From: Candidatus Obscuribacteraceae bacterium
GTDB taxonomy: Bacteria > Cyanobacteriota > Vampirovibrionia > Obscuribacterales > Obscuribacteraceae
Reading direction: 5' to 3'
NCBI GenBank assembly: GCA_044226015.1
Contig: JBGAHS010000002.1
Span: 433,571-497,570 of the forward strand
DNA: 64,000 bases
Part shown: positions 1 to 61,910 of the stretch, in pieces
Layout: the number at the start of each line of letters is the position of its first letter
How positions within the stretch are numbered: the stretch's first letter is position 1
Position numbers and translations under genes: made by a program
The notes under the pieces: model-generated
Database searches by the model: none
What the model was told of the DNA's origin: nothing
What the model saw: the letters and a program-made list of their open reading frames with translations, nothing else

Positions 1-241
1 GATTGAGTTTTCACGTTTTTCTGCCGCCGCTCGCCGCAGATTTTCCTCAGAACTCCACCGGTACCGATTGAGTTTTCACGTTTTTCTGCCGCCGCTCGCC
101 GCAGATTTTCCTCAGAACTCCACCGGTACCGATTGAGTTTTCACGTTTTTCTGCCGCCGCTCGCCGCAGATTTTCCTCAGAACTCAATCGGTACCGATTG
201 AGTTTTCACATTTTTCTGCCGCCGCCAGCCGCAGATTTTCC
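1..241. repeat. Tandem array of a 65-bp unit with a CGGTACCG-centred palindrome (REP/BIME-like); truncated by the window start
   Basis: GATTGAGTTTTCAC recurs at 1, 66, 131 and 196. GGTACC at 60, 125 and 190. Perfect 24-bp palindrome AACTCAATCGGTACCGATTGAGTT at 181-204. Confidence 0.95.
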
Positions 242-266
242 TGCAACATCAATTCCGCAGTGGCTA

Positions 267-839
267 CTATCTTGTAAAAATCGGCTTGTTATCTTCGAAC
301 GCTTTTATGCGCGCTAAGCTCACAACCGGAACTCCTAAATGCTGCACGCGATCCCGCCCGCCCTCGAACTCTTTCTCGATAACTGAAGCTATCCCAACCA
401 GCTGCGCACCGCTCTGTTCCACCAATTTCACTAAAGCAAGAATAGTGCGAGCAGTTGCCAAAAAGTCATCGACTATAAGTATGCGATCGTTCTTGCCTAA
501 GTATTCACTGGAAACAATGAGCTCCACAGCTTTCTTATGGGTATGAGACTCCGAGGTCTCACGGAAAGGATCACCTTTCATGGTTACGGGTTGATTTTTT
601 CTCGCATACACAACCGGAATTTCCAGTTCCATCGCTGCCACCAGTGACGGTGCTATGCCACTGGATTCCGCAGTCAAGATACGCGTAGGACTGCAATCTT
701 TAAATTGCATTGCGATTTCCCCGCCAATTTTCTTCATCAAAAGAGGATCAATTTGATGGTTCATAAATGAATCGACTTTCAAAATGCCGTTTCCCAGATA
801 TTCGCCATCTTTCAGGATTCTTTGTTCAAGTAAGTCCAT
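267..839 (-). CDS. xpt: Xanthine phosphoribosyltransferase
   Basis: ILKVDSFMNHQIDP N-terminal motif, ILTAESSGI, and PRPP-binding ILIVDDFLAT. Confidence 0.93.
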   Translation of the reverse strand: MDLLEQRILKDGEYLGNGILKVDSFMNHQIDPLLMKKIGGEIAMQFKDCSPTRILTAESSGIAPSLVAAMELEIPVVYARKNQPVTMKGDPFRETSESHTHKKAVELIVSSEYLGKNDRILIVDDFLATARTILALVKLVEQSGAQLVGIASVIEKEFEGGRDRVQHLGVPVVSLARIKAFEDNKPIFTR

Positions 840-895
840 CAGTCCTCCAATTGCTCAATCTTTCTCTTGTTATATTGCTTGTTGTATTGCTCGAT

Positions 896-1348
896 CTATT
901 GCTTGTTCTCTTCGGAATACTTTTTCATCGCATTCAAGAAAAGCTTGGGCACCCTAACTGGTCTCATTTTTGCAATATCAACGAACACACCGACATGTTT
1001 AGCAGAAGTGGTCAGCGATTCCCCAAGATAAATTTCCGCCTCTATCGTCAAAGTAGTCATTGTGAGGTCGGAAACCCACATCTTCCCTCTTGGCTTTTCG
1101 AACAAGCGTATCGGCCGGTGATATCTAATTTCAGACGATAACAAGACCGGAGTCTGGCCTGCTTCCATGAAAACTTGGAGAGGGCAGTAAACATCAAACA
1201 TCTTCAGCCTCATATCCTCAAGCCAACGCAGATAAACGATATTGCTCACATGCCCTGCAAAATCGATTTCATGCGTACTTACTGTGATGTCATGCTCAAT
1301 ATAAAGAGCTTTCATCGGCTGACCTCGCCTTTCAATAACAATGATCAC
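896..1348 (-). CDS. Acyl-CoA thioesterase, 4HBT/YbgC hotdog family (start may be the internal MKALYIEH)
   Basis: EIDFAGHVSNIVYLRWLEDMR matches the DxxGHVxNxxYxxxxExxR motif. Confidence 0.88.
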   Translation of the reverse strand: MIIVIERRGQPMKALYIEHDITVSTHEIDFAGHVSNIVYLRWLEDMRLKMFDVYCPLQVFMEAGQTPVLLSSEIRYHRPIRLFEKPRGKMWVSDLTMTTLTIEAEIYLGESLTTSAKHVGVFVDIAKMRPVRVPKLFLNAMKKYSEENKQ

Positions 1349-1702
1349 ATGTCAGGAAGCAATGTACATTGTTTCCACCGTAATTATTTAGTACTAATTT
1401 TTCAATTCGCGCATGCCCTCATCCATGGTGGCTCCAAATTTGCCTCAGGGCACTAAATTTCCAAATAATCAGTAAGATTGCAGTTTTCACTCTAAATCAC
1501 AGACTGCCCACAATTCTCTAATTGATGGATTGTGGTGGAAATTGAGAGCGATGAAGGGCCAAGCCATCCGCGAAAGAAATTTGAAACTCTTGAGAATCAA
1601 CTTCCATCGATGGTTCATAAGTTCAGATTGCGTTATGCTTTTGTGATCTATGCAATTGACCTTCGCACAGCAGTTGGTCACCGGAAAGAGGCGCAAGGAA
1701 AC

Positions 1703-3481
1703 ATGGTTCTCAAGTCTACGATAAGGAAAAGGTCACAAGAGAAGACAATTGGTCTCGTACTGCTCTCTTTCCTCATCTCCACCGCGCCAACAGTGTTAGC
1801 AGCGGACGATCACGAGCCCACGGTAATATCCGCAGACAATCAGGAGCAAAGGGACACGGAAGGATCGCTGTGGTTGAGTGGTATTAACAAAACTAAGACC
1901 CAAGCAGAGCCAGCAACAATTGCAGTGACACCACAGGCAGTTTCAACAGAAACGCAAACTCTTTCGAAAAATTCCAATACTTTATTTGATGAAACCGGGG
2001 CGAGACAAGGATTTGACCAGAAACCTGATCTCGACTCCGATTTACCAATGAACCTGGCTCAGGCAATTCCTTCGGGAGTAAATGGCTCCCAGGTAAATCC
2101 TGCCGCAATAAATCTCGCTCAAGCGAACCCAGTGGTTAACGGACGAATTGAACCCAGCACGAGCGATCCCTCCGTAGCTTCAAATCGTATTGAAGAACTG
2201 ACCAAGCAAGCTATGCTGAAAATCATTGAGCTAGAAAGGTTCAATTTGAATTACAAAGCGAATGCTGCTAAACAGGGCAGATGGAAAGGCTGGCGCTACT
2301 CACTGTTCAATGAAATAGATGGATCTCTCGCATTGACCGGAGGCATAATATCCATTCACAACCGCGGTTCGCATTTGCACTCATCGAACAAAGTTAAGAC
2401 CTACATTCAAGAAGACGCCAATATCTTTCCTATGATAGGCAGCATCATTGGCGCCAGCGCAGCCGCGATGGAATTCGGCATCAATGAATATCATGAATAC
2501 CAGGCGTTTCGCAACGGATATTCCCCTGGACGCGCGCGCATCAAAGTTGCTTCCTTACGCGCTGAAATAGACAAAATTCTGACAGACCGAGAGTCACTTG
2601 TTTCAGTCGAGAAGACAGCGACCACAGAAACAGGCTGGGAAATCGATTCACTTGAAGGTCGAGTCCTGAAAGACCTGCGGGATCAAGCCTTGCTTGAGTT
2701 CCAACGCTACCATATTGGTGCCCGGAGACTGATGGCGTTTCAACAATCACAATATTTCTTCGATTTTGCAAAAAACGTGACGAACGCGATTGGTTGTGAG
2801 TTTGCCTACCTTTCGCTACATCGGGGTCGACGTGTTTGGAATGGACGTGCCGGAACGCTATTTGATGTAAGTGGCGCAATCACCATGGGTGGACCAATTG
2901 TTAGCCGAGCTATAGGAAAACTCGCCGGCGAATACCATAAACAATACATAAAAGAATCAATCGGCGAAGCCGAAGCGAAAGAATGCGCAATTCTTGAACG
3001 CGACCAGAAAGAACTTGAATCATATTGCCGCAGTAATAAAGTTAGCATGGATGTCGTAGGAAAAGTTGTGGACCGCAGCGCCTCATACGGTGACCAGAGC
3101 AAAATCTTCCAAGACGAAATTCAATCGTCATCTAAGCAACTAGACAAGGCAAAATTAGTAGCAACGCAAAACATCGGTGCAGGACTCTATAAAGGCGGAA
3201 GCAAACTCGCCTCCGGTATTCTCTTCAATGCCTGCGGATACCCACAACTCTACAATAGCAAAACACAAACAGCTACTCGAGTAACCAACCACCTCCTATT
3301 TTCTGCTAGCGTAGTGGGACTGCCTGCAACAGCATTTGCAATGGCGGATACTCTGAGAATCCAGGTTACCGGCGAGTTGAACAGGAAAAAGCTAGCAGCA
3401 AAAGGCGAGTTGCCCGTACAGCTAATCAAAAAGAGACTTGCTCAACTTGATGAATTGGAAGCCAAACTGAAAGCTCAATAG
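1703..3481 (+). CDS. Hypothetical exported alpha-helical protein
   Basis: Long ORF. ATG 1703 follows AAGGA and gives a signal-peptide-like stretch (IGLVLLSFLISTAPTVLA-A). Alternating coiled-coil and Gly-rich hydrophobic segments. Confidence 0.75.
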   Translation: MVLKSTIRKRSQEKTIGLVLLSFLISTAPTVLAADDHEPTVISADNQEQRDTEGSLWLSGINKTKTQAEPATIAVTPQAVSTETQTLSKNSNTLFDETGARQGFDQKPDLDSDLPMNLAQAIPSGVNGSQVNPAAINLAQANPVVNGRIEPSTSDPSVASNRIEELTKQAMLKIIELERFNLNYKANAAKQGRWKGWRYSLFNEIDGSLALTGGIISIHNRGSHLHSSNKVKTYIQEDANIFPMIGSIIGASAAAMEFGINEYHEYQAFRNGYSPGRARIKVASLRAEIDKILTDRESLVSVEKTATTETGWEIDSLEGRVLKDLRDQALLEFQRYHIGARRLMAFQQSQYFFDFAKNVTNAIGCEFAYLSLHRGRRVWNGRAGTLFDVSGAITMGGPIVSRAIGKLAGEYHKQYIKESIGEAEAKECAILERDQKELESYCRSNKVSMDVVGKVVDRSASYGDQSKIFQDEIQSSSKQLDKAKLVATQNIGAGLYKGGSKLASGILFNACGYPQLYNSKTQTATRVTNHLLFSASVVGLPATAFAMADTLRIQVTGELNRKKLAAKGELPVQLIKKRLAQLDELEAKLKAQ

Positions 3482-3485
3482 GTCC

Positions 3486-5477: not shown

Positions 5478-5529
5478 CCTACCAAATCACTGCCCTGGAT
5501 ATTCCCGAAGAAAATAGCAAAGTAACCGT

Positions 5530-5716: not shown

Positions 5717-5731
5717 CACACACACATGGGA

Positions 5732-27543: not shown

Positions 27544-29148
27544 CTAAGCGGCTTCGGTGTCGGATTTTTCCTTATCTGGTGCGGGTGCTTCAGAATCTCC
27601 TGACGCATCAGCAACCATTTCGGCAATAGTCTCCTCGACTTTGCGTTCTTCTTCCTTTCTTTCCTCAGGAGTCATTTCGAATCCCTCAGTTTCTGCTGCA
27701 GGAGCCTCTTCTGACTTTTCTTCATCAGCTGGAGCTTCTTCAGTTTCTGCTGCGGGAGCCTCTTCTAACTTTTCTTCGTCAGCTGGAGCTTCTTCAGTTT
27801 CTGCTTCGGCTGCTGGTGCTTCTTCCGATTTCTCTTCATCAGCTGGAGCTTCTTCAGTTTCTGCTGCGGGAGCCTCTTCTGACTTTTCTTCATCAGCTGG
27901 GGCTTCTTCAGTTTCTGCTGCGGGAGCCTCTTCCGATTTCTCTTCATCAGCTGGGGCTTCTTCAGTTTCTGCTGCGGGAGCCTCTTCCGATTTCTCTTCA
28001 TCAGCCGGAGCTTCTTCAGTTTCTGCTGCGGGAGCCTCTTCTGACTTTTCTTCATCAGCTGGGGCTTCTTCAGTTTCCGCTTCGGCTGCTGGTGCTTCTT
28101 CCGATTTCTCTTCATCAGCTGGAGCTTCTTCAGTTTCTGCTGCGGGAGCCTCTTCTGACTTCTCTTCATCAGCTGGGGCTTCTTCAGTTTCCGCTTCGGC
28201 TGCTGGTGCCTCTTCCGATTTCTCTTCATCAGCTGGAGCTTCTTCAGTTTCTGCTGCGGGAGCCTCTTCTGACTTTTCTTCATCAGCCGGGGCTTCTTCA
28301 GTTTCTGCTGCGGAAGCCTCTTCCGATTTCTCTTCATCAGCTGGGGCTTCTTCAGTTTCTGCTGCGGGAGCCTCTTCTAACTTTTCTTCGTCAGCTGGAG
28401 CTTCTTCAGTTTCTGCTGCGGGAGCCTCTTCCGACTTTTCTTCATCAGCTGGAGCTTCTTCAGTTTCTGCTGCGGGAGCCTCTTCTGACTTTTCTTCGTC
28501 AGCCGGAGCTTCTTCAGTTTCTGCTGCGGGAGCCTCTTCTGACTTTTCTTCATCAGCCGGAGCTTCTTCAGTTTCTGCTGCGGGAGCCTCTTCTGACTTT
28601 TCTTCGTCAGCCGGAGCTTCTTCAGTTTCTGCTGTGGGAGCCTCTTCTGACTTTTCTTCATCAGCCGGAGCTTCTTCACCTGCTTCAGCTGCTGGTGCTT
28701 CTTCCGACTTCTCTTCGTCTCCACCGGCTTCCTCACCTGCTTCGCCTGCTGGTGCTTCTTCCGATTTCTCTTCGTCTCCACCGGCTTCTTCACCTGCTTC
28801 GGCTGCTGGTGCTTCTTCCGATTTCTCTTCGTCTCCACCGGCTTCTTCACCTGCTTCAGCTGCTGGTGCTTCTTCCGATTTCTCTTCATCACCACCAGAT
28901 TCTTCACCGGCTTCCGCTACTGGTGCTTCTTCTAATTTCTCTTCGCCGCAGCACGCCTCGATTGCTTCACTACACTCAGAAGACACATCATCACATTTCT
29001 GTTCATCGGATGCTGCATCGGTAGCGGCTTCACAGCTAGGTGCTGCTTCCGCATTACAACATTCTTTTGTATCTTCGACTACAATTTCTTCAATCTTTTT
29101 TGGTGCAGCAGGGGCGTGCTTTTTTCCTTTCCCTTTTTTCTTCGACAT
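27544..29148 (-). CDS. Highly acidic tandem-repeat protein (22 copies of EEAPAAETEEAPADEEKS-type units)
   Basis: ATG 29148 preceded by GGAGGAAGAGGA; Lys-rich start, Cys-rich segment, 18-20 aa repeats, unique C-terminus. Confidence 0.8.
   Translation of the reverse strand: MSKKKGKGKKHAPAAPKKIEEIVVEDTKECCNAEAAPSCEAATDAASDEQKCDDVSSECSEAIEACCGEEKLEEAPVAEAGEESGGDEEKSEEAPAAEAGEEAGGDEEKSEEAPAAEAGEEAGGDEEKSEEAPAGEAGEEAGGDEEKSEEAPAAEAGEEAPADEEKSEEAPTAETEEAPADEEKSEEAPAAETEEAPADEEKSEEAPAAETEEAPADEEKSEEAPAAETEEAPADEEKSEEAPAAETEEAPADEEKLEEAPAAETEEAPADEEKSEEASAAETEEAPADEEKSEEAPAAETEEAPADEEKSEEAPAAEAETEEAPADEEKSEEAPAAETEEAPADEEKSEEAPAAEAETEEAPADEEKSEEAPAAETEEAPADEEKSEEAPAAETEEAPADEEKSEEAPAAETEEAPADEEKSEEAPAAETEEAPADEEKSEEAPAAEAETEEAPADEEKLEEAPAAETEEAPADEEKSEEAPAAETEGFEMTPEERKEEERKVEETIAEMVADASGDSEAPAPDKEKSDTEAA
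27690..28945. repeat. Coding tandem repeat, 54-60-bp units
   Basis: Recurring GGAGCTTCTTCAGTTTCTGCTGCGGGAGCCTCTTC with mostly synonymous variation in the minus-strand frame. Confidence 0.95.
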
Positions 29149-29490
29149 GGTCCTCTTCCTCCGGGCGCGAAAACAAAAGGTCTCCCAAGAAACAATCTGG
29201 AAGGCGCGCATGCCAGACGCGCACGATTGTACACGCCTGTAGTGACGGTGAATTAGGTACAAGCACCATGACATTGCGCTCTCGCACACGTCTTTAGAGC
29301 TTGTACTCTTGCACACGCCTTTTTATTGCCTGCTCGCTAGGCAAATTCAATTTTGAGACCTTCTATTACAAGTATATGAAAAAGATCAGCTGAGCGGGGT
29401 ATCGTTTTGGAGAAATTTTGATTAAAACTTGACTTTTTTCGACGCTGAAAAGGCACCACCTAAAGTGGCTTGGTTTTTGCAAACTTTCGG

Positions 29491-31072: not shown

Positions 31073-31292
31073 AGCGAAGATTTTCCGCAGAACTTCACCG
31101 GTACCGGTCCAGTTCTCATTTCTAGCGACGATTTTCCGCAGAACTCCATCGGTACCGGTCCAGTTCTCATTTCCAGCGACGATTTTCCGCAGAACTCCAT
31201 CGGTACCGGTCCAGTTCTCATTTCCAGCGACGATTTTCCGCAGTACTCCATCGGTACCGGTCCAGTTCTCACTTCTAGCGAAGATTTTCCCG
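31073..31292. repeat. Tandem array of a 51-bp unit with the CGGTACCG palindrome (same family as 1-241)
   Basis: AGCG at 31073, 31124, 31175, 31226 and 31277; GGTACC at 31100, 31151, 31202 and 31253. Confidence 0.95.
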
Positions 31293-35777: not shown

Positions 35778-35928
35778 TCGGTTTTTCTTACCCAAATTGA
35801 AGACTCGACCGGTACCGATGTAGTTCTCCGGTTTTTCTTACGCCAATTCAAAACTCGACCGGTACCGATGTAGTTCTCCGGTTTTTCTTACCCAAATTCA
35901 AAAACTCGACCGGTACCGATGTAGTTCT
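35778..35928. repeat. Tandem array of an ~50-bp unit with the CGGTACCG palindrome, 3 copies
   Basis: GTTTTTCTTA at 35781, 35831 and 35881; ACTCGACCGGTACCGATGTAGTTCT in each unit (GGTACC at 35811, 35861, 35912). Confidence 0.93.
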
Positions 35929-42320: not shown

Positions 42321-43799
42321 ATGACGGGTCTCAGAATTTTCAATACCCTGACTAATAAGAAGGAAGAATTTGTTCCATTGAGCCCAGGCAAGGTCCTTAT
42401 GTATGCCTGCGGTCCTACTGTCTATGATTTGAGCCATCTGGGTCATGCCAGAATGACCATGACTTTTGACGTGATACAACGCTATCTCCGCTTTATCGGA
42501 TATGACGTGACTTTCGTGCGCAACATCACAGACATTGACGATAAAATTATCAATCGGGCAAAAGAGCTTGGCATCAAGCCAGAGTTGCTTTCCAGAAGAT
42601 TCACGTACACATTCTGGAAGGACATGGACGATCTAAATCTGGCGCCACCAGATATAGAACCACGTGCAACGGAATACATACAGCAGATGATTCAAATGAC
42701 CGAAGGCTTAATAAAAGCCGGACATGCATATGAATCTAGTGGTGATGTTTATTTCGACGTTCTTTCCTTCAAAGAATACGGCAAGCTAAAAAAGCAAAGC
42801 GTCGATGACCTCATGCATGGTGCAAGAGAGCAAGTTCGCAGCCAGGAAGAACTGAAAGAAAAAAAGAAAAACCCGGTTGATTTTGCTTTATGGAAATCAG
42901 CCCCGGAAGGAGAAACCGGTTGGAGCAGCCCCTGGGGCTGGGGAAGGCCAGGCTGGCATCTTGAGTGCTCCTCTATGATTAAAAAAGTCCTGGGTGAGAC
43001 AATCGACATTCATGGCGGAGGTGAGGACCTGGTCTTCCCACATCATGAAAACGAAATTGCTCAGTCGGAAGCGCTTCATGGAAAACCCCTGGCGCGATAC
43101 TGGATTCATAACTCATTTGTACAAATTGATCAGGAAAAAATGTCAAAATCATTGGGCAATTTCGAAACGATCCAATCTGTGCTATCGAATTATTCTCCGG
43201 ATGTTGTTCGTTTGTTCATTTTGCAAACTCACTACCGAAGCCCAATTGAGTTTTCGACAGAAAGCATCGAGGCGGCGAAATCCGGTACAGCTCGACTTTT
43301 ACGAGCAGCTCGTATGGCTCAGAAGCTCGACGGTCACAACGGTGAGAAGAATGGCAAAATTGTGACCTACCTCACAGCAGACCATCCGTGCATGGTAGCT
43401 CTGAGAAGTGACACAGCTGCAGGCGAAGCAATCACAAAGTTGCACAATGACTTCATTGAAGCAATGAATAATGATTTCAACACACCACAAGCGGTATCAG
43501 CACTATTCCAAATGGCAGACATGGCCTTTTCAAGCAAAGATGCAGAATTAGCAGCTAAGTATGCAGCCGCAATCAAATCATACGCGGACGTTCTAGGACT
43601 GCGCCTGATTGATACAGGAAAGATAATCGATACAAAGACGGGGTCTCAACTCGTTGAACTCTTGATCGAAATGCGCGATGCTGCACGAGGCAATAAAGAT
43701 TACAAACAATCTGACTTGATTCGCGATTCATTACTTAAGTTAGGAATTAAAGTTATGGACGTAAAAGGCGAAGCCAAAGCCCAGTGGGAAAAGGAATAG
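42321..43799 (+). CDS. cysS: Cysteine--tRNA ligase
   Basis: CGPTVYD, HLGHAR, GRPGWHLECS, FPHHENE, KMSKSLGN. Confidence 0.98.
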   Translation: MTGLRIFNTLTNKKEEFVPLSPGKVLMYACGPTVYDLSHLGHARMTMTFDVIQRYLRFIGYDVTFVRNITDIDDKIINRAKELGIKPELLSRRFTYTFWKDMDDLNLAPPDIEPRATEYIQQMIQMTEGLIKAGHAYESSGDVYFDVLSFKEYGKLKKQSVDDLMHGAREQVRSQEELKEKKKNPVDFALWKSAPEGETGWSSPWGWGRPGWHLECSSMIKKVLGETIDIHGGGEDLVFPHHENEIAQSEALHGKPLARYWIHNSFVQIDQEKMSKSLGNFETIQSVLSNYSPDVVRLFILQTHYRSPIEFSTESIEAAKSGTARLLRAARMAQKLDGHNGEKNGKIVTYLTADHPCMVALRSDTAAGEAITKLHNDFIEAMNNDFNTPQAVSALFQMADMAFSSKDAELAAKYAAAIKSYADVLGLRLIDTGKIIDTKTGSQLVELLIEMRDAARGNKDYKQSDLIRDSLLKLGIKVMDVKGEAKAQWEKE

Positions 43800-43860: not shown

Positions 43861-44108
43861 AGACTCACGACATTCGTGAGCGATCCGAACAAGCCGCTTG
43901 TTTTTGATGTCTACGCTGAGAGCTTCTGGAGATGCGATTTTCACGCCGACGAATACAGCAAGATTGACCGCACGGATCTAAGGTTTTTCTGCGCATAAAG
44001 TGAGCTCTGCAGTAAGAAAAACAATTTTCAATTCTTTTTTTGCATTTTCATTGAACTTTTTCGACCTCATTTACGTTTTAAACAACAGAAGGTATGAGGT
44101 AAAGAATA

Positions 44109-45095
44109 ATGCGAAAGAGAAAAGAGAAAAGCAAATTCGCAGAACTGTATCCAGCATTTTGTAAGGAATTCCCTGATGAAGAACATTGCGTTAGGATGCT
44201 TAGTCAACAACGCATGAAAAAAGTCATCCCTTGCAAGAAATGCAAAGGTACAAAATTCGTACACACAAATACCTACAAGCAATATTACTGCGAAAATTGT
44301 GGTCAGGAATATTTCACCTTTGCTGGAACCTATTTCGAGAGGTGTACATATTTCCGCGCGCGGGTGGCTGCAATCTGGTTTAAACAACGCAAGATACGCC
44401 CCTCGCCACTCGAATTTGCCCAGTACTTTGGCATGGCTCTTTCCACAGCTCAGGACATTTTGAACAACGTGGGGTTTATCTCTCTGGAAAAAATGAATCA
44501 GAGAGAAACGGAGACATTGTCCTCATCAGAATTTCTTGAAATATACTGTCGTCGCAGTCTGCAAACTCCAGCCCGAGAGCATCCTCGCGCAGAGCAAAAC
44601 GAACTAGACGATCACTTCAAAGAGATAGACCAGACTACAGATGAGGCTTTTAATGTTGAGCTAGATGAAACTGAACTTTTGGTGCTCGACGAATTGTCCA
44701 CAGAGAAGGGAAAAAACGTTGATGACCTGATCAGCAAAACCAGCCTGGAATTTTCGGATATCTTGATGGCTCTGAGCCAGTTACAGTTCAAAGGGCTAGT
44801 GGATTTTACAGCAGAACAATTGTTCAAGCGAAAAAAGAAAATTCCTAAGCCAAACAATAATGAGGCACAAAAAAAGTTCATTGAGAAATTCACCGAGTCG
44901 ATTAAAGATAAGTGCCACCGTATAAGCAGAAAATACATTCAGGTCTACCTCGCGGACGCCTGGGCGACCGAACAAGATGACATATGGACAGATGAATTCA
45001 TGGCAGAACTTCTTGAACGAAAACCACTCTCAAGGGCGGCTATGCGAGCCTATACATCGCCTTATTATCTACAAATACCCTGCTGCGCCAGCTAA
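44109..45095 (+). CDS. IS1595-transposase-related protein: Zn ribbon, HTH, DprA-like winged helix and IS1595-like C-terminal helix; no intact DDE core seen
   Basis: FPDEEHC...CKKC...YYCENC...AGTYFE; LEFAQYFGMALSTAQDIL; LDETELLVLDEL...VDDLISKTSLEFSDILMALSQLQFKGLV; HRISRKYIQVYL. Confidence 0.7.
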   Translation: MRKRKEKSKFAELYPAFCKEFPDEEHCVRMLSQQRMKKVIPCKKCKGTKFVHTNTYKQYYCENCGQEYFTFAGTYFERCTYFRARVAAIWFKQRKIRPSPLEFAQYFGMALSTAQDILNNVGFISLEKMNQRETETLSSSEFLEIYCRRSLQTPAREHPRAEQNELDDHFKEIDQTTDEAFNVELDETELLVLDELSTEKGKNVDDLISKTSLEFSDILMALSQLQFKGLVDFTAEQLFKRKKKIPKPNNNEAQKKFIEKFTESIKDKCHRISRKYIQVYLADAWATEQDDIWTDEFMAELLERKPLSRAAMRAYTSPYYLQIPCCAS

Positions 45096-45222
45096 GGAAA
45101 GAGACCCAGAACGGTCTTGAATCCTCTCCATAAACTGTTTCTTTGTGGCAAGCAGTCGCAACAATAGTGCCTCAGAAAACTCCTCAAATTCGAACCTGCT
45201 TGGTTTGAAGCGAACTCACAAT

Positions 45223-45270
45223 GCCCCAGAACAATGTGCAGCCAGGCATGGCTGCACATTGTTCTGGGGC
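45223..45270. repeat. Perfect 22-bp inverted repeat with a 4-nt loop
   Basis: GCCCCAGAACAATGTGCAGCCA-GGCA-TGGCTGCACATTGTTCTGGGGC. Confidence 0.9.
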
Positions 45271-45295
45271 TAAAATTGTCAACAACCCCGTCCTA

Positions 45296-45363
45296 CAATA
45301 AAGGCTGCACCGGTACCGATGTAGTTTTTTTGTTTTTGAGCGGTACCGGTGCAGCCTTTATTG
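45296..45363. repeat. Perfect 23-bp inverted repeat with CGGTACCG in each arm
   Basis: CAATAAAGGCTGCACCGGTACCG (45296-45318) and CGGTACCGGTGCAGCCTTTATTG (45341-45363). Confidence 0.9.
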
Positions 45364-45459
45364 GATCACGCCTACGGAGCTCCAGTTTGACATCTGGCAG
45401 CAAAAAATTTGACTCGGTGAACGCGACCAGAGTCTTTTAGTTTTCTGTTAGCAAAAGTT

Positions 45460-45543
45460 CGGAGAGGGTGGGATTCGAACCCACGTGGCGTTAACCCATC
45501 CGCTTTCGAGGCGGCGCCGTTGTGACCGCTTCGGTACCTCTCC
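45460..45543 (-). tRNA. tRNA-Ser (anticodon CGA), CCA not encoded
   Basis: Minus strand GGAGAGG...CCTCTCC-G acceptor stem, anticodon loop CTCGAAA, long variable arm, GGTTCGAATCC T-loop. Confidence 0.93.
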
Positions 45544-45811
45544 TCAATGCTCAGATTGTAGCAAATAAGGATAGCTCAAGGCTAAAGCGCCATCAGCACG
45601 TTATTACAAATCGATATTTCTCGCTGCAACGATCCAGGATTAAGGACTTCTTAGCTTGAATATCAGCAACAACCCTATGTTTGACAAGCGAACTGAATTT
45701 CTTCCCAATATTCATTTGGAATTCTGAGTTACTACGACATTGGCAACAAAACAAAACACACTTGCAAACCATGCAAGTGTGTAATTTTTCTAACAATATA
45801 GATATCTGGTC

Positions 45812-46609
45812 CTAGTTGCTGTGGCTCACTGCCGTTCCCGCTATCTGCCTGCTCGTCTCTGCATGCTGTTTAAGCGCAGACATAACACCAGGCATATCTG
45901 TCCGAACCTGACGCTTTATCAGCGGCGGTGGGAGAAATAAACCACCATTAACATAGCTTGCATACGTCACCAGAGTTGAGTTGCCATCGCTTTGTGGTTC
46001 AAGTTTCCAAAAGCCATCAACTTCTCTGAAATCGCCACTCACTCTGTGCCATTCGTACAGCTTGTTAGCAGTTTCTTTCACTTCGATAACATAATCAAAG
46101 GTTGTCGGCACACCACTCGGCTTGATCTGATGCTGCACCAGCTTGGTATTACCTTTGTCCTTTACAAGTTTGCACTTTTTGAGACAAGGGAAAATTTCTG
46201 TTGCATTTTCGTAATCAGTGAGAATTTTCCAGACAGCTTCTGGCTTCACATGGACCAGAATTTTGCTCACCTGATAATTCTTATCACCAATTTTCTCTTC
46301 ATTTATTTCAACTGAACCAGCAGACTGAGTCTGCATTGATGCTTTGTCAATTGACTTTGCGCATACGCTATCAATGGATACAAATGAATTGATCGCGAAT
46401 ACGCTAAGCAATGCAAGCGATATTTTAGAAATACTCACGCGGGACCGCCCTCTAGAACTGCGACTTACTGACCGCTGTCTGTGTGCCATCAAATACAATA
46501 CTAAATTCCTCTTATGTGTCAACAAGGTTTTCAAGTATGTCAAATCGAGCCAGCAGCGTGTAATCATGACCCATAAGTACACTGCGAACGAAATTCTACC
46601 CCTTTTCAT
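45812..46609 (-). CDS. SRPBCC/polyketide cyclase-dehydrase family protein (start probably MAHRQ near 46489)
   Basis: PEAVWKILTDYE...FP, GDFREVDGFWKLEP, TLVTY; signal-like segment. Confidence 0.8.
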   Translation of the reverse strand: MKRGRISFAVYLWVMITRCWLDLTYLKTLLTHKRNLVLYLMAHRQRSVSRSSRGRSRVSISKISLALLSVFAINSFVSIDSVCAKSIDKASMQTQSAGSVEINEEKIGDKNYQVSKILVHVKPEAVWKILTDYENATEIFPCLKKCKLVKDKGNTKLVQHQIKPSGVPTTFDYVIEVKETANKLYEWHRVSGDFREVDGFWKLEPQSDGNSTLVTYASYVNGGLFLPPPLIKRQVRTDMPGVMSALKQHAETSRQIAGTAVSHSN

Positions 46610-46664
46610 TTCAAGGGCTCAAGTAAATTGGACTCATGTTGAAAAGAATTACGCTTTAAGACTA

Positions 46665-47594
46665 ATGACTAAGCTGAATAAGAAAAGAATCGCTAATTCA
46701 GTATTAATCTACAACCCGAAATCAGGCTCAGCATTGGATCGTGATATCTGGTTGGGTACGATTGTTGACAAACTTTGTACATCATTAGAACAATCGGTCA
46801 CAGTAGGTGCCACCAGCTCCGGTGTCACTGCTGCTGATATTCTCAAAAGATTTATGGCATTATCGCCTGACCTGGTGATAGCTGCTGGTGGCGATGGAAC
46901 TATCAGACATATTCTGGGTTCGTTCGCAGAAGCGAAGGTAGAAATTCCTGTCGGATTAATTCCTTTCGGGACAGGAAATCAATTGGCTCGAAATCTTGGA
47001 ATTCTGGAAGACAGTATTTTTGTTGACCCATTACAAAGATCCATCGACGTTATCGGAAGCGCGAAAACCCGCTGCATTGATTTGGGTATCTGCAACGGAC
47101 ATTATTTCTGCGTCGGAGTTGGCGTAGGACCTGTTTCTGATGCAATCCTCACACCAACACAGGAAGAAAAGCAAAACTGGGGAATGCTTGCATACGTGGG
47201 TCCAATGATCCAGACCTTAACATCACAAGCCGTTCAATTTCGCATCACCGCAGATGGTGACACTTTCGAAGTAAAAGCACTTGGGGTTATAGTTTCGAAC
47301 GTTGCTGATATGGGTTTCGCCCGAATATCAGAGGGGGCGCGACTAGACGATGGTTATCTTGATTTGTGTGTAATTCCTCTGGGTGACTTCGGCGATTATG
47401 TAAAGCTTGGATTCAATCTGGCTAGTTCTGTTCTACTTGGAGAAACACCTTTTTATCAGCGACGAGTCAAGAACGTATTGATCGAAAGCAAAAATGGACC
47501 GGCTATTGCAAACATAGACGGCGACCACATTGGATTTACGCCAATGAAAATTGAAGTTCTTCCAGGATCAGTGAACATTCTATGTCCCAACTAA
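46665..47594 (+). CDS. Diacylglycerol kinase family lipid kinase (YegS/DgkB-like)
   Basis: IYNPKSG, AAGGDGTI, IPFGTGNQLARNL, DDGYLD, IDGD. Confidence 0.9.
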   Translation: MTKLNKKRIANSVLIYNPKSGSALDRDIWLGTIVDKLCTSLEQSVTVGATSSGVTAADILKRFMALSPDLVIAAGGDGTIRHILGSFAEAKVEIPVGLIPFGTGNQLARNLGILEDSIFVDPLQRSIDVIGSAKTRCIDLGICNGHYFCVGVGVGPVSDAILTPTQEEKQNWGMLAYVGPMIQTLTSQAVQFRITADGDTFEVKALGVIVSNVADMGFARISEGARLDDGYLDLCVIPLGDFGDYVKLGFNLASSVLLGETPFYQRRVKNVLIESKNGPAIANIDGDHIGFTPMKIEVLPGSVNILCPN

Positions 47595-56418: not shown

Positions 56419-56481
56419 GACAGAAGATTTTCAGAAAGCTTTCCTCGCGACCTTTTTATGACTGTTTCACGTGCGAGAATC

Positions 56482-56699
56482 TTCGCCTCGCACCCCGCAG
56501 ATTTTCCCGAAAACTCCATCGGTACCGGTTGAGTTCTCAGATTTTTCTGCGCCTCGCACCCGCAGTTTTTCCCGAAAACTTCATCGGTACCGGTCGAGTT
56601 CTCAGATTTTTCTTCGCCTCGCAACCGCAGATTTTCCCGAAAACTTCATCGGTACCGGTCGAGTTCTCAGATTTATCTGCGCCTCGCACCGCAGATAAA
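56482..56699. repeat. Tandem array of an ~65-bp unit with the CGGTACCG palindrome, 3 copies plus a partial
   Basis: CGCCTCGCA at 56484, 56550, 56615 and 56680; GGTACC at 56521, 56586 and 56651. Confidence 0.95.
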
Positions 56700-56774
56700 G
56701 CTTGAATCTGACACTTCGATTCAAAAATAAAGAAACAAGTGCGATAATTAGACCTCATCACTTGAGAGCCTCAA

Positions 56775-57329
56775 TTGTCAATCAGACTCACAATTACTGG
56801 AGCCAGCGGAGTAGGCAAAACGACTCTTGCTGAATGCATCGCAGAATTACTGGAACTGCCTTTAATACCGGAATTAGCTCGAGAGCTATGTTCGGAAATG
56901 GGTTACCCACGAATCGGCGACATTCCTGACCAGGAAAAATTCAAACGCGATGCCTTAGAACGACAAATAGATACAGAGTTGAAACACGAATCATTTGTTG
57001 CCGACCGCTCTGCCATCGACACCTGGGTGCTATGGCAGCGTTGGAATATTTGCACGGCAATGACTTATGACACTGAAGCGATTTATGAATTAGTCAGCAA
57101 GCACATCAGCCACTACACGCACATAATCTACATCCCTCCGATGTTCAAGGCAGAAGAAGATGGATTTCGCTGGACCGAACCTGATTACATCAAGCAAGTC
57201 GACCGCATTATTCGCATGACTCTTTACGAGCTTGACCTCTGGGAAAAAGTCATGGTTATAACAAAAGACAATATCACCGAACGCATCCTTGAGGTTCAGC
57301 GATGGATCGAAAGGCAATCGGTAACATGA
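56775..57329 (+). CDS. P-loop kinase/ATPase (AAA_28, NadR kinase-like)
   Basis: ITGASGVGKTTLA, IPELARE, FVADRSAID, DGFR. Confidence 0.8.
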   Translation: MSIRLTITGASGVGKTTLAECIAELLELPLIPELARELCSEMGYPRIGDIPDQEKFKRDALERQIDTELKHESFVADRSAIDTWVLWQRWNICTAMTYDTEAIYELVSKHISHYTHIIYIPPMFKAEEDGFRWTEPDYIKQVDRIIRMTLYELDLWEKVMVITKDNITERILEVQRWIERQSVT

Positions 57330-58330
57330 AGTCGATTGCACCACATCTGGTATTACTGTTTACGCTTGGCATAGCTGCATGTTTCGCCGAATCAAAAGCT
57401 GACGAGAAAGTCCCATCGGCAAACCTTAGCTTGAAATCTGCTTCCTCCGCTAGCGTTCCAACACCAGCAACAGCCAAAAGGCTTATCTCAACAGCTCCTT
57501 CTAACACAGAACTTATTTATAGCCTCAACGCAGGGAGAAGTCTTGTAGGAGTTTCAGAAAGCTGCAACTTCCCTCCTGAGGCAAAAAGTAAAGAAGTTAT
57601 ATCCAGCTTCAACTCCTTAAAAATGGAAAAGGTCGCCCAGCTAAAACCAGATTGCATCTTTCTTGTAAGCGGGCAGGAATCACTAGCACATAATTTGAAA
57701 AAACATGGATTCAACTCCGTTCTGCTAGACAACAGTTCCATTGAAAACATTAGCAAGAATCTGTTAGCCATTGGCAAGGTCACCAAGCAGGAGAACGAAG
57801 CCGTAGCGCTTGGCAAAGCTTTTGACATGGCAATCAGGAAACTGAAAAAGCTTACATCAAGCGACAAAAAACTTCCCCGCGTATTTATCTGCGTCTGGCC
57901 ACAACCGCTAATGTCGGCAGGCAAAAGTAGTTTTATGAATGAGGGTGTCACTATAGCTGGTGGCATAAATTGCACGGGAGATTTGCCACAACCCTATCCG
58001 CGCGTCAACCAGGAAAAACTCGTTCTTTTGAAACCGGATCTAATAATAGTTCCCGCCGAACAATCGAGAGAAAAGTTCTGGGATAAAGCTCCGTGGATTA
58101 GCATGAAGGCAGTTAAGGAAAACCGTATCTATGTCGTCCCGCAGCACGAAACAGACTGCCTGACGCGGCCCACTTTGCGTTACATAGATGCACTCAGCTG
58201 GCTTGCCTGCAAGCTCCATCCCGAACTCAAAACAGCCATAGACAATTGGCATTCGGAAGCGGTTGAGTCATTAAAAGTCCTCAAGAGTGATCAAAAATCA
58301 TCCTCTCGGAAATCATCCTTCCGTACGTAG
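57326..58330 (+). CDS. BtuF-like cobalamin/Fe-siderophore periplasmic binding protein
   Basis: RLISTAPSNTELIYSL..LVGVSESCNFP, LKPD, AVKENRIY, RPTLR; signal peptide. Confidence 0.85.
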   Translation: MKSIAPHLVLLFTLGIAACFAESKADEKVPSANLSLKSASSASVPTPATAKRLISTAPSNTELIYSLNAGRSLVGVSESCNFPPEAKSKEVISSFNSLKMEKVAQLKPDCIFLVSGQESLAHNLKKHGFNSVLLDNSSIENISKNLLAIGKVTKQENEAVALGKAFDMAIRKLKKLTSSDKKLPRVFICVWPQPLMSAGKSSFMNEGVTIAGGINCTGDLPQPYPRVNQEKLVLLKPDLIIVPAEQSREKFWDKAPWISMKAVKENRIYVVPQHETDCLTRPTLRYIDALSWLACKLHPELKTAIDNWHSEAVESLKVLKSDQKSSSRKSSFRT

Positions 58331-58558
58331 AAAAAGATTCATCTAAAGGCTTTACTAAGTACATTGACTTGATGATGGAGGTTAGAAAGTCTGATTTCAG
58401 GCGTTTTTCGTATTTGTCCAAATATTTACGCCACGGATGACACTTAGCCATATGGCTCGAGGTAGTGGCTATAATCTTGGAGGTTAGGATTCGCTCGATG
58501 AACGAATTTTCACGACCACATGTCAAGCTCTCGGCAGCATTACCAGTAGAGATTTGAA

Positions 58559-59950
58559 GTGCACTTCAGCAACATAGAACCAAACAACACGGCAGGGCTG
58601 ACAAACGAGTCAGCAAACAATCACCTCGTTGTAGTCGGCATCAATTACCACTCGTGTCCGATATTCATTCGCGAGAAGTTCGTAATCCCGGATTCCTGCA
58701 TTAAGCATGCTTTACAAGCTTTGACCCATATGCCGCATCTCAAGGAAGCAGCGATACTTTCAACCTGCAACCGTACAGAAGTATATGCAGTTGTTAGCGA
58801 TGTCCAGGCGGGGCTCAGAGAAATAGAGTCATTCTTTGCTTCGACTCAAAAGCTTGCAGACCATGATGCTCTGAAACCGAATTTCAAACTTTTAAGGGAC
58901 GACGTGGCACTCCACCTCTTTAGAGTCGCTTCCGGACTAGACAGCTTGGTACTCGGCGAAGGACAGATTGTCGCCCAGGTTAAGAACGCTTTCAAGCACG
59001 CAGTCGATGCTGGCACTGCCAAAACGTTCCTGACTCAGCTCTTTCAGACCGCTCTGTGCACCGGCAAACGAGTTCGCACAGAAACAACGCTCGGTCGCCG
59101 TGCGGTCTCTGTCAGCTCGGCAGCAATTGAAATGGCTCGCGAAACCTTTGGCGGACTGAACGACAAGACCGCTCTCATTGTAGGCGCTGGTCACATGGCT
59201 CAACTCAGTGCCAAACACCTGCTTGCAGACAATGGTACCAGCAGACTCTTGATGATCAACCGGACGGCTGAACGGCTGGAACATTTTTCAGGCAACAAAT
59301 TACCAAACAAGGACAGACTTGATATTTCGCAATCTTTCAGCAACCGCTATGAGCTGATGAATGAGAGCGATCTAGTCATAGTATCCACAAGCTCGCCGAA
59401 ATATCTGCTCACTAAAGCTGAGCTGCAAAAGCACCTCAAGCCTGGCAAGAAAATCTGCATAATCGACATCTCGGTGCCAAGGAATGTAGAGCCCGCAGTC
59501 GCTGAACTTGATGCTGTCACTCTCTACCACGCAGATGATCTGGCTAAAGTAGTAAATGCAAATCTTGCCGAACGAGAGGCTTTGACAGCAGACGCCGAGC
59601 GCATCGTATTTGAGATGCTCACGGAATATGAAAACTGGGAACGCTCGCTTTTGATAGCGCCAACTTTAACTGAATTCCGCAAAAAAATCGAAGCAATTCG
59701 TGTGGAACATCTGGTGAAGCACGAGCGCCAGGAAAACGACGAGTTTGAAGCACTGAGTCGAGCGTTGATAAATCAGATTCTTCATCAACCAACTACGCAG
59801 TTGAAATCAACAAGTGACTACCATCTTTTAAAACAGCAGGCAGAAGCACTGCGCAAACTGTTCCAGCTTGATATTTTTGGTGAGGAAACGGGGTCCTCGT
59901 GCCCTGCTTCGGCAGCAAATCAAATTCACGCACACGCGAAGCAGATGTAG
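58559..59950 (+). CDS. hemA: Glutamyl-tRNA reductase
   Basis: LSTCNRTEVY, HLFRVASGLDSLVLGEGQI, GKRVRTET, GAGHMA, DISVPRN. Confidence 0.97.
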   Translation: MHFSNIEPNNTAGLTNESANNHLVVVGINYHSCPIFIREKFVIPDSCIKHALQALTHMPHLKEAAILSTCNRTEVYAVVSDVQAGLREIESFFASTQKLADHDALKPNFKLLRDDVALHLFRVASGLDSLVLGEGQIVAQVKNAFKHAVDAGTAKTFLTQLFQTALCTGKRVRTETTLGRRAVSVSSAAIEMARETFGGLNDKTALIVGAGHMAQLSAKHLLADNGTSRLLMINRTAERLEHFSGNKLPNKDRLDISQSFSNRYELMNESDLVIVSTSSPKYLLTKAELQKHLKPGKKICIIDISVPRNVEPAVAELDAVTLYHADDLAKVVNANLAEREALTADAERIVFEMLTEYENWERSLLIAPTLTEFRKKIEAIRVEHLVKHERQENDEFEALSRALINQILHQPTTQLKSTSDYHLLKQQAEALRKLFQLDIFGEETGSSCPASAANQIHAHAKQM

Positions 59951-59962
59951 GCACCGAAAGTA

Positions 59963-60925
59963 GTGGCAAAGAAAAAGTTTGTTGTTGGTACGCGCGATAG
60001 TATTCTCGCTCGGCTGCAGACAGATCTTGTGCTCAAGATTTTGAAGGAAAAATTTTCAAATCTCGAATTTGAAATTATTGCAGTTAAAACTAGCGGTGAC
60101 AAAATTTTGCACAAACCTCTTGCAGAGCTCGGCGGGCGGGGCGTGTTTGTTAAAGAGCTGGAGGAATCTCTTCTGAGGAAAGAAGTAGATTTCGTCGTAC
60201 ACAGCTTGAAGGATCTACCAACCGAAATTCCCCAACATCTAAACTTAGCAGCCACAATAAACAGGGCGGACCCTCGAGATGTTTTGCTGGGCAAATCGCG
60301 AATAAAGTTCAACGAACTGCCAAGCGGGTCCCGAGTTGCAACATCCAGCAGACGCAGAGCGGCACAGCTTGCGGCTATCCGTACAGATATTCAATTTGTG
60401 GACATTCGCGGAAACATTCAAACGCGCTTGAGAAAACTGGAAGAAGGTCAATGCGATGCAATGATTCTTGCAGCTGCTGGTCTGGAACGCCTTGAGCTGG
60501 CAGATCGAATTAGCCAGTATTTTGAACCAGAAGAATGCGTACCAGCTGTAGGACAGGGAGCGCTTGGCATAGAATGCCATGAAGATAATAAGGAGCTACT
60601 TTTATTACTTGAACAAATAAATGATGAAGTGGTTTGGGCTTGTACAAGCGCTGAAAGAGCACTTCTCAATCAACTGGGCGGTGGATGCTCGGTGCCCGTG
60701 GGAGCTCTTGCACAAATGCTGGATGACGGAAGCGGCAGAATTGAACTTCGAGCTGTGGTCGCTTCCATGGATGGAAAGCAAGTTTACAGAGCATATGCCA
60801 CCGGGACCTTAGGTGAAGCTGAATCAATGGGAAAAAAGCTTGCCGAAGAACTATCGTCGCAAGGCGCCGGCGCTGTAATAGAAAGCTTATTGAACCAGAA
60901 TATTGGTGAAGTTTCGCCTCCCTGA
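59963..60925 (+). CDS. hemC: Hydroxymethylbilane synthase
   Basis: GTRDSILARLQ, VHSLKDLP, TSSRRR, RGNIQTR, GGGCSVPVG. Confidence 0.97.
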   Translation: MAKKKFVVGTRDSILARLQTDLVLKILKEKFSNLEFEIIAVKTSGDKILHKPLAELGGRGVFVKELEESLLRKEVDFVVHSLKDLPTEIPQHLNLAATINRADPRDVLLGKSRIKFNELPSGSRVATSSRRRAAQLAAIRTDIQFVDIRGNIQTRLRKLEEGQCDAMILAAAGLERLELADRISQYFEPEECVPAVGQGALGIECHEDNKELLLLLEQINDEVVWACTSAERALLNQLGGGCSVPVGALAQMLDDGSGRIELRAVVASMDGKQVYRAYATGTLGEAESMGKKLAEELSSQGAGAVIESLLNQNIGEVSPP

Positions 60926-60940
60926 CATTTAGAGGTTGAG

Positions 60941-61729
60941 ATGAACGCCGCAAAGCAACTTAATGGAAAACGTATCCTGGTTACCAGACCGGCGCATCAG
61001 GCGCAGAAACTATGTAATTTGCTTCAAGAAGCCGGTGCGGAAGTATTCTGCCTTCCACTGCTCACAATTGGCGCACCAAAAAGTTGGAAAGACTTTGATG
61101 CAGCTTTTAAGAGCCTGAGCGAATATCAGTGGATAATTTTTGCTAGCGCAAATGCAGTAGAATCAACCATCGAACGAGCGCAAGCACTGAAGCTAGTCGA
61201 ATCTCTACACAAAATTGAAATTGCCTGCGTCGGCAAAGCAACAGCAGCCTGTCTTGAAGAGCTGGGATTGACACCCTCACTGGTGCCTAACAACTTTGTG
61301 GCAGAATCGCTCATCGAAGAGTTGAAGAAAAACGGCCCGGGTAAAGCACTCTGGCCAAAGACCACTAAAGGGCGGCTTCTTATCAAAGATGATCTTGAAA
61401 AACTAGGATGGAAGGTCGATGTTGTACACTCGTATATTACAGAGGGTCCGGAAGATCCGCACGCTTGCGCAAGAGAATTAGCGAATATGCTTCGCGAAAA
61501 AAACATCGACGTTATTACTCTAACCAGCTCAGAAACAGTTCTTCAACTCCACGCGATAAATGATATGTGCAAGACCGAATTTTCCACATCAATCGACAAA
61601 CTTAAATTGGCAGTAATCGGGCCTGAAACAGCGAAAACATGCCAAACTCTTTTTTCTCGCGTTGACATCCAGGCTGAGGAGTATTCAATGAAAGGTTTAG
61701 TCGAAGCTCTCTGCAACTATTACAGATAA
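60941..61729 (+). CDS. hemD: Uroporphyrinogen-III synthase
   Basis: ILVTRP, IIFASANAV, CVGKATA, TSSETV, IGPETA; follows hemC. Confidence 0.93.
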   Translation: MNAAKQLNGKRILVTRPAHQAQKLCNLLQEAGAEVFCLPLLTIGAPKSWKDFDAAFKSLSEYQWIIFASANAVESTIERAQALKLVESLHKIEIACVGKATAACLEELGLTPSLVPNNFVAESLIEELKKNGPGKALWPKTTKGRLLIKDDLEKLGWKVDVVHSYITEGPEDPHACARELANMLREKNIDVITLTSSETVLQLHAINDMCKTEFSTSIDKLKLAVIGPETAKTCQTLFSRVDIQAEEYSMKGLVEALCNYYR

Positions 61730-61830
61730 TTTTTTGAAGTCTTTTTGAATCAGAGATTTGAAAGAACTTCTGTGCCAACTTGGCGTATCCATTTCGCCCA
61801 GTCGATGCCGACTTCCTCAGCCACGCCTAA

Positions 61831-61910
61831 GCGGTGGAGTTTTCAGGAAAATCTGTGTGGGCGCGCCGGAGAAAAAACGCGAAACTCGAGCGGTACCGCC
61901 TTTCGGTACC
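61831..61910. repeat. Single degenerate copy of the 65-bp CGGTACCG unit in inverted orientation, plus an extra GGTACC
   Basis: Reverse complement GGTACCGCTCGAGTTTCGCGTTTTTTCT...CAGATTTTCCTGAAAACTCCACCG aligns with the unit at 60-125. Confidence 0.75.

Follow-up and report, generated by a model that had tools for sequence, protein, structure and literature searches.

How short palindromic repeats are born and how they spread in bacterial genomes is a long-standing question, and even for repetitive extragenic palindromic (REP) elements and their REP-associated tyrosine transposases (RAYTs) the answer rests on inference. The question is raised anew by a 64,000-nucleotide stretch of DNA from a Candidatus Obscuribacteraceae bacterium (the window, positions 433571-497570 of contig C1 in G000, an 8.19-Mb genome of 13 contigs, 92% complete), in which an initial annotation had described palindromic repeats at six loci. 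We find that these repeats are one dialect of a wider site family with the core AnCGnTAnCGnT, concentrated around a gene at 44109-45095 that encodes an IS1595 derivative without the DDE (Asp-Asp-Glu) catalytic core. The explanation we prefer, with a probability of about one half, is that the protein acts in cis, binding its own sites and bringing in the host helicase ComM so that the sites are copied into nearby DNA.

Palindromic repeats of the window

The repeat loci, to none of which a strand is assigned, comprise satellite arrays and a 'master' site adjacent to the cognate gene:

1-241: satellite array with a 65-bp unit and cores at 51-74, 116-139 and 181-204, 44 kb from the cognate gene and extending left of the window
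31073-31292: satellite array with a 51-bp unit and four cores, 31091 to 31267
35778-35928: satellite array with a 50/51-bp unit and three cores, 35802 to 35926
45296-45363: gene-adjacent master site, a 68-bp inverted repeat with cores at 45303-45326 and 45333-45356, 200 bp 3' of the stop codon
56482-56699: satellite array with a 65-bp unit and three cores, 56512 to 56665
61831-61910: decayed single satellite, its core at 61883-61906 with 5 mismatches and the left arm intact

The palindrome CGGTACCG occurs 16 times in the window compared with 0.13 occurrences expected (100 dinucleotide shuffles, the largest count being 1), and all 16 copies are inside these six loci, as are 17 of the 21 GGTACC sites. 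The repeat family, its concentration of GGTACC, the unit spacings of 65, 51, 50/51, 30 and 65 bp, and the position of all six loci outside annotated open reading frames (ORFs) are therefore as initially reported. Across the genome no other of the 256 palindromic 8-mers is as over-represented as CGGTACCG (298 copies versus 68 expected), and 71 of the 74 loci with two or more cores fall outside ORFs of at least 250 aa, which occupy 75% of the genome. Classified by the orientation of neighbouring genes, 55 loci include 21 convergent, 20 tandem and 2 divergent cases and 12 that lie within crude ORF calls. These numbers agree with the suggestion that the palindromes are lineage-specific, intergenic and biased towards gene 3' ends, seeding a site and then amplifying there.

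The strict 24-mer AACTnnAnCGGTACCGnTnnAGTT has 87 exact copies in G000 and none in a block-shuffled genome. Because a pattern that specifies only the arms yields 114 matches, 87 of them with the same centre, the centre of the 24-mer is not a product of the search. The 24-mer has no match in 40 relatives or in viral contigs and 5 single matches in the genome collection, which suggested a family confined to one species; this idea was dropped once the wider core was found.

Several details of the initial description changed on closer analysis. The density of one locus per 10 kb is true near cognate genes only, and 45296-45363, which had been listed as an array like the rest, is the inverted core pair of the master site. 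A site is indeed present at 61831-61910, but as a half-decayed single copy. Repeats are likewise present at 1-241, but the array extends leftward out of the window and spans an N in the assembly, which leaves the number of copies uncertain. The presumed second hairpin of the 65-bp units is the junction between the outer flanks of adjacent ~60-bp monomers, and the units fold no better than shuffled sequences. The arrays at 31.1 and 35.8 kb recur in contigs from another study's run; although those contigs break inside the arrays, presence in independent contigs means that the two arrays are no assembly artefact. The earlier interpretation is thus partly supported. An Rfam scan of the window matched a tRNA alone.

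Two further candidate readings were considered. Restriction-modification does not fit because GGTACC is enriched (1.23) rather than avoided. Helical phasing of the unit lengths (27-30, 39-41, 50-52, 62-69 and 81-84 bp) gave many significant periods on raw counts, and these were lost once the counts were collapsed to distinct lengths (p 0.06 at 10.7 bp).

The pair of cores at the master site folds strongly (-27.7 kcal/mol, z -11.9), and five of five satellite pieces have z between -0.05 and -0.6. Variable positions are no more symmetric than expected by chance at 43 loci, and the A/T tracts are anti-symmetric. The satellites, judged by their sequences, appear to behave like duplex sites and not like hairpins. 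With REP elements, bacterial interspersed mosaic elements and REPIN-RAYT systems, as these are characterized in PMC3733652, PMC3337134 and PMC3116915, the family has in common a domesticated transposase gene with a short palindrome of its own beside it, and copies that are species-specific, intergenic, 3'-biased and tandemly amplified. It differs from REPs in having no GTAG/CGTC foot, no stable hairpin and no arm covariation; words GTAG, GGAG or CGTC lie within 8 bp of either end in 10 of the 87 strict sites, with no fixed foot, in line with the initial view that this is not a canonical REP. It differs from RAYT systems in that its partner derives from IS1595 and has no catalytic core. Between the two kinds of partner gene proposed initially, the IS1595-like one exists, as the derivative at 44109-45095, and the RAYT/HUH one was not found, there being no match to PF01797 (Y1_Tnp, Y1/HUH) in G000. 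REP doublets are, moreover, randomly placed, whereas the present family forms gene-centred halos with paralogue-specific dialects. The family resembles RAYT/REP in its logic, yet four of the five REP features tested are absent.

The cognate gene and its halo

The core AnCGnTAnCGnT has 531 matches in G000, versus 70-260 for other central dinucleotides. Copies of CGGTACCG are unevenly distributed over the genome, C1 and C7 carrying 187 of the 298, and other dialects, first recognised by tandem-repeat and motif scans, occupy other regions: CGATATCG at C1:1092-1207 kb, CGATAGCG at C4:14-125 kb, CGATACCG at the end of C11 and the start of C10, GATCGGTACCGATC at C6:51-73 kb, and CGTTAACG at single loci on C7 and C11. 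When 710 ORFs of the dialect regions were compared all against all, one small family was returned, common to six regions. It has 8 paralogues in G000, which are 29-38% identical to the copy in the window, and a core of the local dialect lies at most 500 bp downstream of all 8. Around the window's copy we record:

43980-43994, forward strand: the satellites' outer flank (AAGGTTTTTCTGCGC) without a core, lying 5' of the cognate gene's promoter, possibly the remnant of an upstream site
44051-44076, forward strand: conserved promoter-like motif TTGAACTTTTT-n-CGT, present ahead of each of the 8 paralogues and also of comM, comEC, radC and further recombination genes
44109-45095, forward strand: cognate gene (328 aa) with a zinc ribbon (C42, C45, C61, C64), a helix-turn-helix (HTH), a winged helix at residues 183-244 and an S-R-K-Y-x-Q helix

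A halo of sites that is centred on the gene and matched to it in dialect is well supported. Setting aside the 5 masters among the 74 multi-core loci, 38 of the remaining 69 are within 50 kb of a paralogue, a zone that makes up 9.5% of the genome (binomial p 3e-21). Per 100 kb there are 5-7.5 loci up to 30 kb from a paralogue, 1.3 between 30 and 40 kb, 6.0 between 40 and 50 kb, 1.9 between 50 and 75 kb and ~0.5 farther out, and for most G000 genes the halo is two-sided. Within 75 kb, 42 of 45 loci carry the core of the nearest master (10.7 on average in permutations, p 3e-4), and sister paralogues have dialects in common. The domains had been drawn by eye from the repeats before the gene family came to light. 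The tests therefore confirm the association without being an independent discovery of it; the independent tests come from other genomes. Stepwise hopping from neighbour to neighbour was considered and rejected, as there is no autocorrelation within three domains (p 0.12, 0.56 and 0.64).

Neisserial dRS3/NIME arrays, mycobacterial MIRU, and cyanobacterial SDR and HIP have a constant short core, variable linkers and intergenic minisatellite-like arrays, HIP sites being largely intragenic. To our knowledge none of these is centred on a cognate gene or written in local dialects, and we found no account of this family or of gene-centred halos in the literature, covered mostly through the main texts of open-access articles.

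Two observations concern the same regions. Near the G000 paralogues there is also a higher density of tandem arrays that lack the core (16.5 per 100 kb within 25 kb versus 3.8 beyond 200 kb), an enrichment that is weak at the window's gene and not seen in the halos of G013 and G053 (2.2-5.0). The C4 halo includes, at C4:26787-28094, an integrase with an arm-binding domain and the same promoter motif.

The paralogues are derivatives of IS1595 transposases in which a DprA-type winged helix has replaced the DDE core. Residues 13-127 align with IS1595 TnpA (hhalign probability 97.5), the four cysteines are conserved in homologues, and PF12760 is matched over its cut-off in 1 of the 8 paralogues and more weakly in 5. 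Like IS1595 transposases (PF12760 plus PF12762), the proteins have an N-terminal zinc ribbon and HTH and a C-terminal H-G-I-S-R-K-Y-L-Q helix, and a conserved R-S-x-x-T-P-x-x-x-H-P-x-x-E loop is located where the DDE core starts in intact IS1595. The ExDE and SD/TD blocks of 7 intact transposases have no counterpart in the aligned proteins, and the place of the DDE core is taken by the winged helix or, in natural short forms, by nothing. Also unlike IS1595, the copies have one palindrome at one end and no paired terminal repeats, their mutual homology stops at the stop codon, and their promoter is a competence-type host promoter. With the catalytic core missing, the proteins fall outside the IS1595 family as PMC8101967 defines it.

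PF17782 is matched over the cut-off in 5 of the 8 paralogues, in one of them exactly at it, and below the cut-off in the window's protein. The structure model (mean predicted local distance difference test, pLDDT, 92) has short strands only and no RNase H sheet. Among the structural matches listed there are only winged helices, covering residues 183-244; R. palustris DprA is one of them (Z 9.9, root-mean-square deviation 1.3, 55 residues aligned), and many winged helices tie. Foldseek gave no match at E 0.001. A single-sequence fold of a form without the winged helix reached a pLDDT of 36.6, which is too low to judge the core outside the winged helix. In a protein atlas, the cognate protein falls among clusters of Candidatus Melainabacteria. 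A likeness may be drawn to SETMAR, which according to PMC9062482 keeps a transposase DNA-binding domain, binds remnants of terminal repeats and is fused to a new effector domain, although SETMAR is eukaryotic, single copy and acts genome-wide on old remnants.

Gene copies and sites in other genomes

The gene family is present in 48 of 60 sampled genomes of the same bacterial family and in 67 of 77 that are at least 85% complete, with 1-20 copies where it occurs. In 300 genomes from elsewhere in the phylum, for which at most 6 candidates per genome were scored, no member was found, and a metagenome scan with the window's protein found no relative. In other genomes a core lies just upstream of the promoter in 20 of the 29 best loci (15 exact, 5 with one mismatch), and 3 of the other 9 have almost no upstream DNA. 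The master site is thus upstream of the promoter in relatives and downstream of all 8 genes in G000. The consensus outside G000 is AAAACT(C/A)AACCGATATCGGTT(T/G)AGTTTT with unrelated flanks; the motif first described in the window is a derived version. Homology among 20 copies in two genomes extends in most pairs from near the palindrome to near the stop codon, with no core at the other end; the flanks of sites differ between loci.

The upstream core is often part of a long perfect palindrome. All 10 copies in G001 have a core, and in 8 of them the palindrome is perfect or near-perfect over 52-62 bp, with outer arms specific to the locus (by eye); at least 7 of the 10 copies in G045 have an upstream core. 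In a quick tree, the 8 copies of G000 and 5 metagenomic kin form one clade (SH-aLRT 100) and the 10 of G045 form another. Intact IS1595 occurs in 33 of 101 family genomes and has no match in G000, G001 or G013; as copies group by genome, the gene multiplies within lineages, although intact IS1595 is unmatched in these three. Such multiplication, and the long perfect master palindromes, which are suggestive of cutting followed by fold-back repair, would suit a protein that nicks or recombines its sites unaided by means of a non-DDE catalytic centre of its own (R149, S150, T153, H158, E162, R274 and K275, 92-99% conserved in 149 sequences). We nevertheless consider such a centre rather improbable: neither a tyrosine nor an acidic triad is invariant in the 149 sequences, no nuclease or recombinase fold is among the listed structural matches, which are confined to the winged helix, the residue motif is degenerate in some copies that have satellites, and S-R-K-Y and E-T-P have counterparts in intact IS1595.

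The ratio of motif to control matches has a median of 0.63 in 12 genomes without the gene (none above 1.5) versus 1.62 in 48 genomes with it (25 above 1.5), a comparison in which kin are not independent and some weak gene matches may be intact IS1595. Halos recur, unevenly, in five other genomes. All 20 sites of G012 are within 69 kb of its three full-length copies. G013 has 64 sites versus 0 for the control; among the 50 listed, 38 surround the single full-length copy and 12 are at the start of another contig, which may adjoin that of the copy. G053 has 75 sites, and among the 50 listed 46 surround two copies, each with its own dialect. In G398, 2-5 satellites lie within 50 kb of 3 of the 4 full-length copies, whereas each of the 5 copies that lack the winged helix is accompanied by an adjacent tandem array (loose in one case), with no satellite of the same dialect in 20 kb. 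Two copies without the winged helix in G007 likewise have an adjacent array only, in the stretch read. This contrast hints weakly at a link between the winged helix and the satellites. Because every dialect maps to a single gene copy, the range of spread can be measured (~50-75 kb), the site is traceable to transposon ends and natural variants without the winged helix exist, the birth of repeats becomes directly testable. The 8 pairs of paralogue and dialect also represent a putative natural series of DNA-binding specificities.

The neighbours of the cognate gene in the window are:

42321-43799, forward strand: cysS, left neighbour, kept in five congeners
45460-45543, reverse strand: tRNA gene, right neighbour, tRNA-Ser(cga) in the congeners

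In five congeners cysS and tRNA-Ser stand in the same gene order with no cognate gene between them, and the 8 stretches read from these genomes contain no arrays and 2 stray single cores. In the congeners G003 and G005, the array of 35778-35928 is missing from the matching murD-tpr spacer. The empty sites are too diverged to align in a check for target duplication; the IS1595 family makes an 8-bp duplication (PMC8101967). A tRNA is present at just 1 of the 36 other family loci that were scanned, so these genes are not generally targeted to tRNAs.

This pattern of presence and absence bears on the notion that the protein is a host-domesticated organiser or regulator of regional DNA, its sites structuring domains of ~100 kb in the manner of ParB/parS or MatP/matS, whose palindromic duplex sites cluster in one chromosomal region. 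The duplex-type sites do cluster around the gene, the gene is widespread in the family, and ParB_N is found in 3 of 61 family genomes and gives no match in G000. We doubt this notion strongly, however, because there are 0 to 20 copies per genome at non-orthologous positions, the gene is absent from the same locus in the five congeners, no copy is near dnaA (C6:816 kb, 744 kb from the paralogue on that contig), and genomes without the gene are also without ParB. The sites differ further from parS and matS in forming several independent regions per genome that are unrelated to the origin, in being gained and lost among congeners, and in being tandemly amplified. The scarcity of ParB_N is of interest in itself, since large chromosomes here may lack ParABS.

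The strain of the other study is ~99.9% identical over 29.5-43.5 kb of the window and several per cent divergent across 43900-47500, that is, over the gene, the master site and the tRNA side. Its cognate allele is 97% identical, and nearly all of the 76 differences on a 9.6-kb contig are from 43.9 kb on; the allele was likely imported. Among the 22 differences listed in the gene, 17 are synonymous and 5 non-synonymous. A general allele swap at these genes was rejected, as a second paralogue shows 1 difference in 3.9 kb. The imported allele, in a segment far more divergent than its flanks, and the excess of synonymous differences would be expected if the halo arose by selection on linked DNA: the bound protein would alter the fate of transforming DNA, either blocking replacement by an empty allele or aiding its own import, and chance copies would be kept within about one recombination tract. 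The competence-type promoter, the DprA-type winged helix and a halo comparable in size to large transforming fragments point the same way. This account does not by itself explain where new 25-60-bp copies at unrelated sites come from, and no allele swap is seen at the second paralogue; we regard it as unlikely.

Putative origin of the sites and their possible spread

In intact IS1595 elements of the same bacterial family, the right end consists of a tip of a few G/C bases followed by TAT-n4-T-n-AG in 8 of 29 loci (2% background; the motif was also scored as TAY-n4-T-n-AG), and the four highest-scoring intact relatives are among the 8. Read from its centre, the palindrome arm is in the same register, corresponding to the inner part of the terminal repeats, with the G/C tips missing. 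We infer that the site may consist of two tip-less segments of IS1595 terminal repeats placed head to head and sharing TA, which the retained HTH would recognise. Unlike a miniature inverted-repeat transposable element, the site has no complete parental terminal repeats and retains only the inner part of the IS1595 repeat, fused on TA. The resemblance of the arms to terminal repeats, and the occurrence of intact IS1595 in a third of the family genomes (33/101), might suggest conventional non-autonomous elements that an intact IS1595 transposase or a RAYT mobilises in trans. This is very improbable: the G/C tips are missing, the G000 assembly, 92% complete, has no match to intact IS1595 or Y1, the halos centre on a DDE-less gene, and REPINs are randomly placed in extragenic space (PMC3116915).

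The promoter motif provides a link to competence. It is of a type that we take, from its consensus, to be that of extracytoplasmic function (ECF) sigma factors. A matrix trained on 40 promoters of relatives' copies has 50 matches in G000, which include all 8 paralogues, comM (C1:781434-782948, a name that presumably follows from TIGR00368), comEC, radC and a UPF0102 gene, presumably yraN. Further matches are a phosphoribosyltransferase-domain gene, which we read as ComF-like, priA, dnaE, an SbcC-like ATPase and an ECF sigma gene. Since dnaB, xseA and Spy-like genes also carry the motif, the regulon is not purely one of competence. The winged-helix consensus of the family, GELSAALTMLEL, is nearly the same as that of the host DprA, GELSATLTMLEL, and the E of the putative ComM surface is kept in 87% of 149 homologues, the mapping of this residue onto the Vibrio interface being our own. 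The preprint 10.1101/2024.10.21.619469 describes the DprA winged helix as recruiting ComM for branch migration through L/E residues and as binding no DNA. The present proteins differ from DprA in that the winged helix is fused to a putative sequence-specific DNA-binding module rather than to a loader of RecA on single-stranded DNA, and in that the E is Q in 4 of the 8 paralogues; the paralogue at C7:657699-658856 is one that retains it.

The ComM-based explanation may be laid out in four steps. First, the retained zinc ribbon and HTH would recognise double-stranded palindromes near the protein's own gene. Second, action would be limited to cis, as for many transposases of insertion sequences, or bounded by the length of one transforming DNA molecule; a cis preference through cotranslational binding is established for IS911 (PMC5009743). 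Third, during competence the DprA-type winged helix would recruit ComM, whose branch migration, together with YraN and repair, would stand in for the lost catalytic core and paste sites of 25-60 bp into nearby intergenic DNA, where slippage would turn the pasted copies into tandem arrays. Fourth, and more rarely, gene and master site would move together and found a new halo, the dialect drifting with the protein. Among the models considered, we prefer this one; the pairing of gene and site, the halo of ~50-75 kb, the dialect match, the loss of the DDE core and the promoter motif of competence genes are observed. More tentatively, at somewhat less than even odds, the protein could be viewed as a self-marking, catalytically dead transposase that docks ComM at its own palindromes, writes a private dialect over ~100 kb, biases regional DNA exchange and relocates although it has no nuclease. 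Should ComM prove to be the engine, the evolution of these repeats would be tied to natural transformation, and a mobile gene would persist without its own catalytic domain.

A number of results weigh against copying by ComM in cis. The window's protein is one of the four paralogues with Q in place of E, and these four nonetheless have dense halos, while dprA itself has no match to the promoter matrix. Copies in the window's dialect also turn up at distances of 200-390 kb from the gene, as well as on contigs that have no paralogue, and a search for a gene remnant near these far-off sites found none. Two G000 paralogues have only 1-2 arrays within 100 kb. Neither a polymorphic empty satellite site nor a target duplication was seen. 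In other genomes, the motif excess does not scale with copy number where the gene is present (rho 0.20, p 0.17); G001 has few satellites for its 10 full-length copies (30 matches versus 17 for the control); three other G053 copies have few or no sites; in G380, 15 of 43 loci are near its 4 genes (8% of the chromosome) and 28 are dispersed; and the whole-genome pattern in G398 fits the dialect of just one of the five short copies.

A few minor observations concern other sequences. In two congeners (L110 in G005 and L111 in G003), ORFs of ~200 aa consist of the zinc ribbon/HTH part only, each followed by a tandem array of another sequence, and these are possibly a parallel IS1595-derived family. 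At 27544-29316 of the window, long overlapping ORFs on both strands have no family matches and overlie a 54-bp tandem repeat. In G000 as a whole, GGATCC is the most over-represented palindromic 6-mer (1.49) and is present in many of 643 tandem arrays, and CCTAGG and GAGCTC are avoided. Dispersed repeat families of 0.3-2 kb with 85-97% identity are located at most breaks where contigs end (C1, C3, C5, C7, C11, C12 and C13), and one array on C3 adjoins what we read as RHS-like sequence. Other REP-like intergenic palindromes, of the types GGCGACGC..GCGTCGCC and GGAGCGCCGGCATC.TGCC and unrelated to this family, occur at L076:6560-7100 (G006), L083:6200-6450 (G003) and G000:C13:94343-94561.

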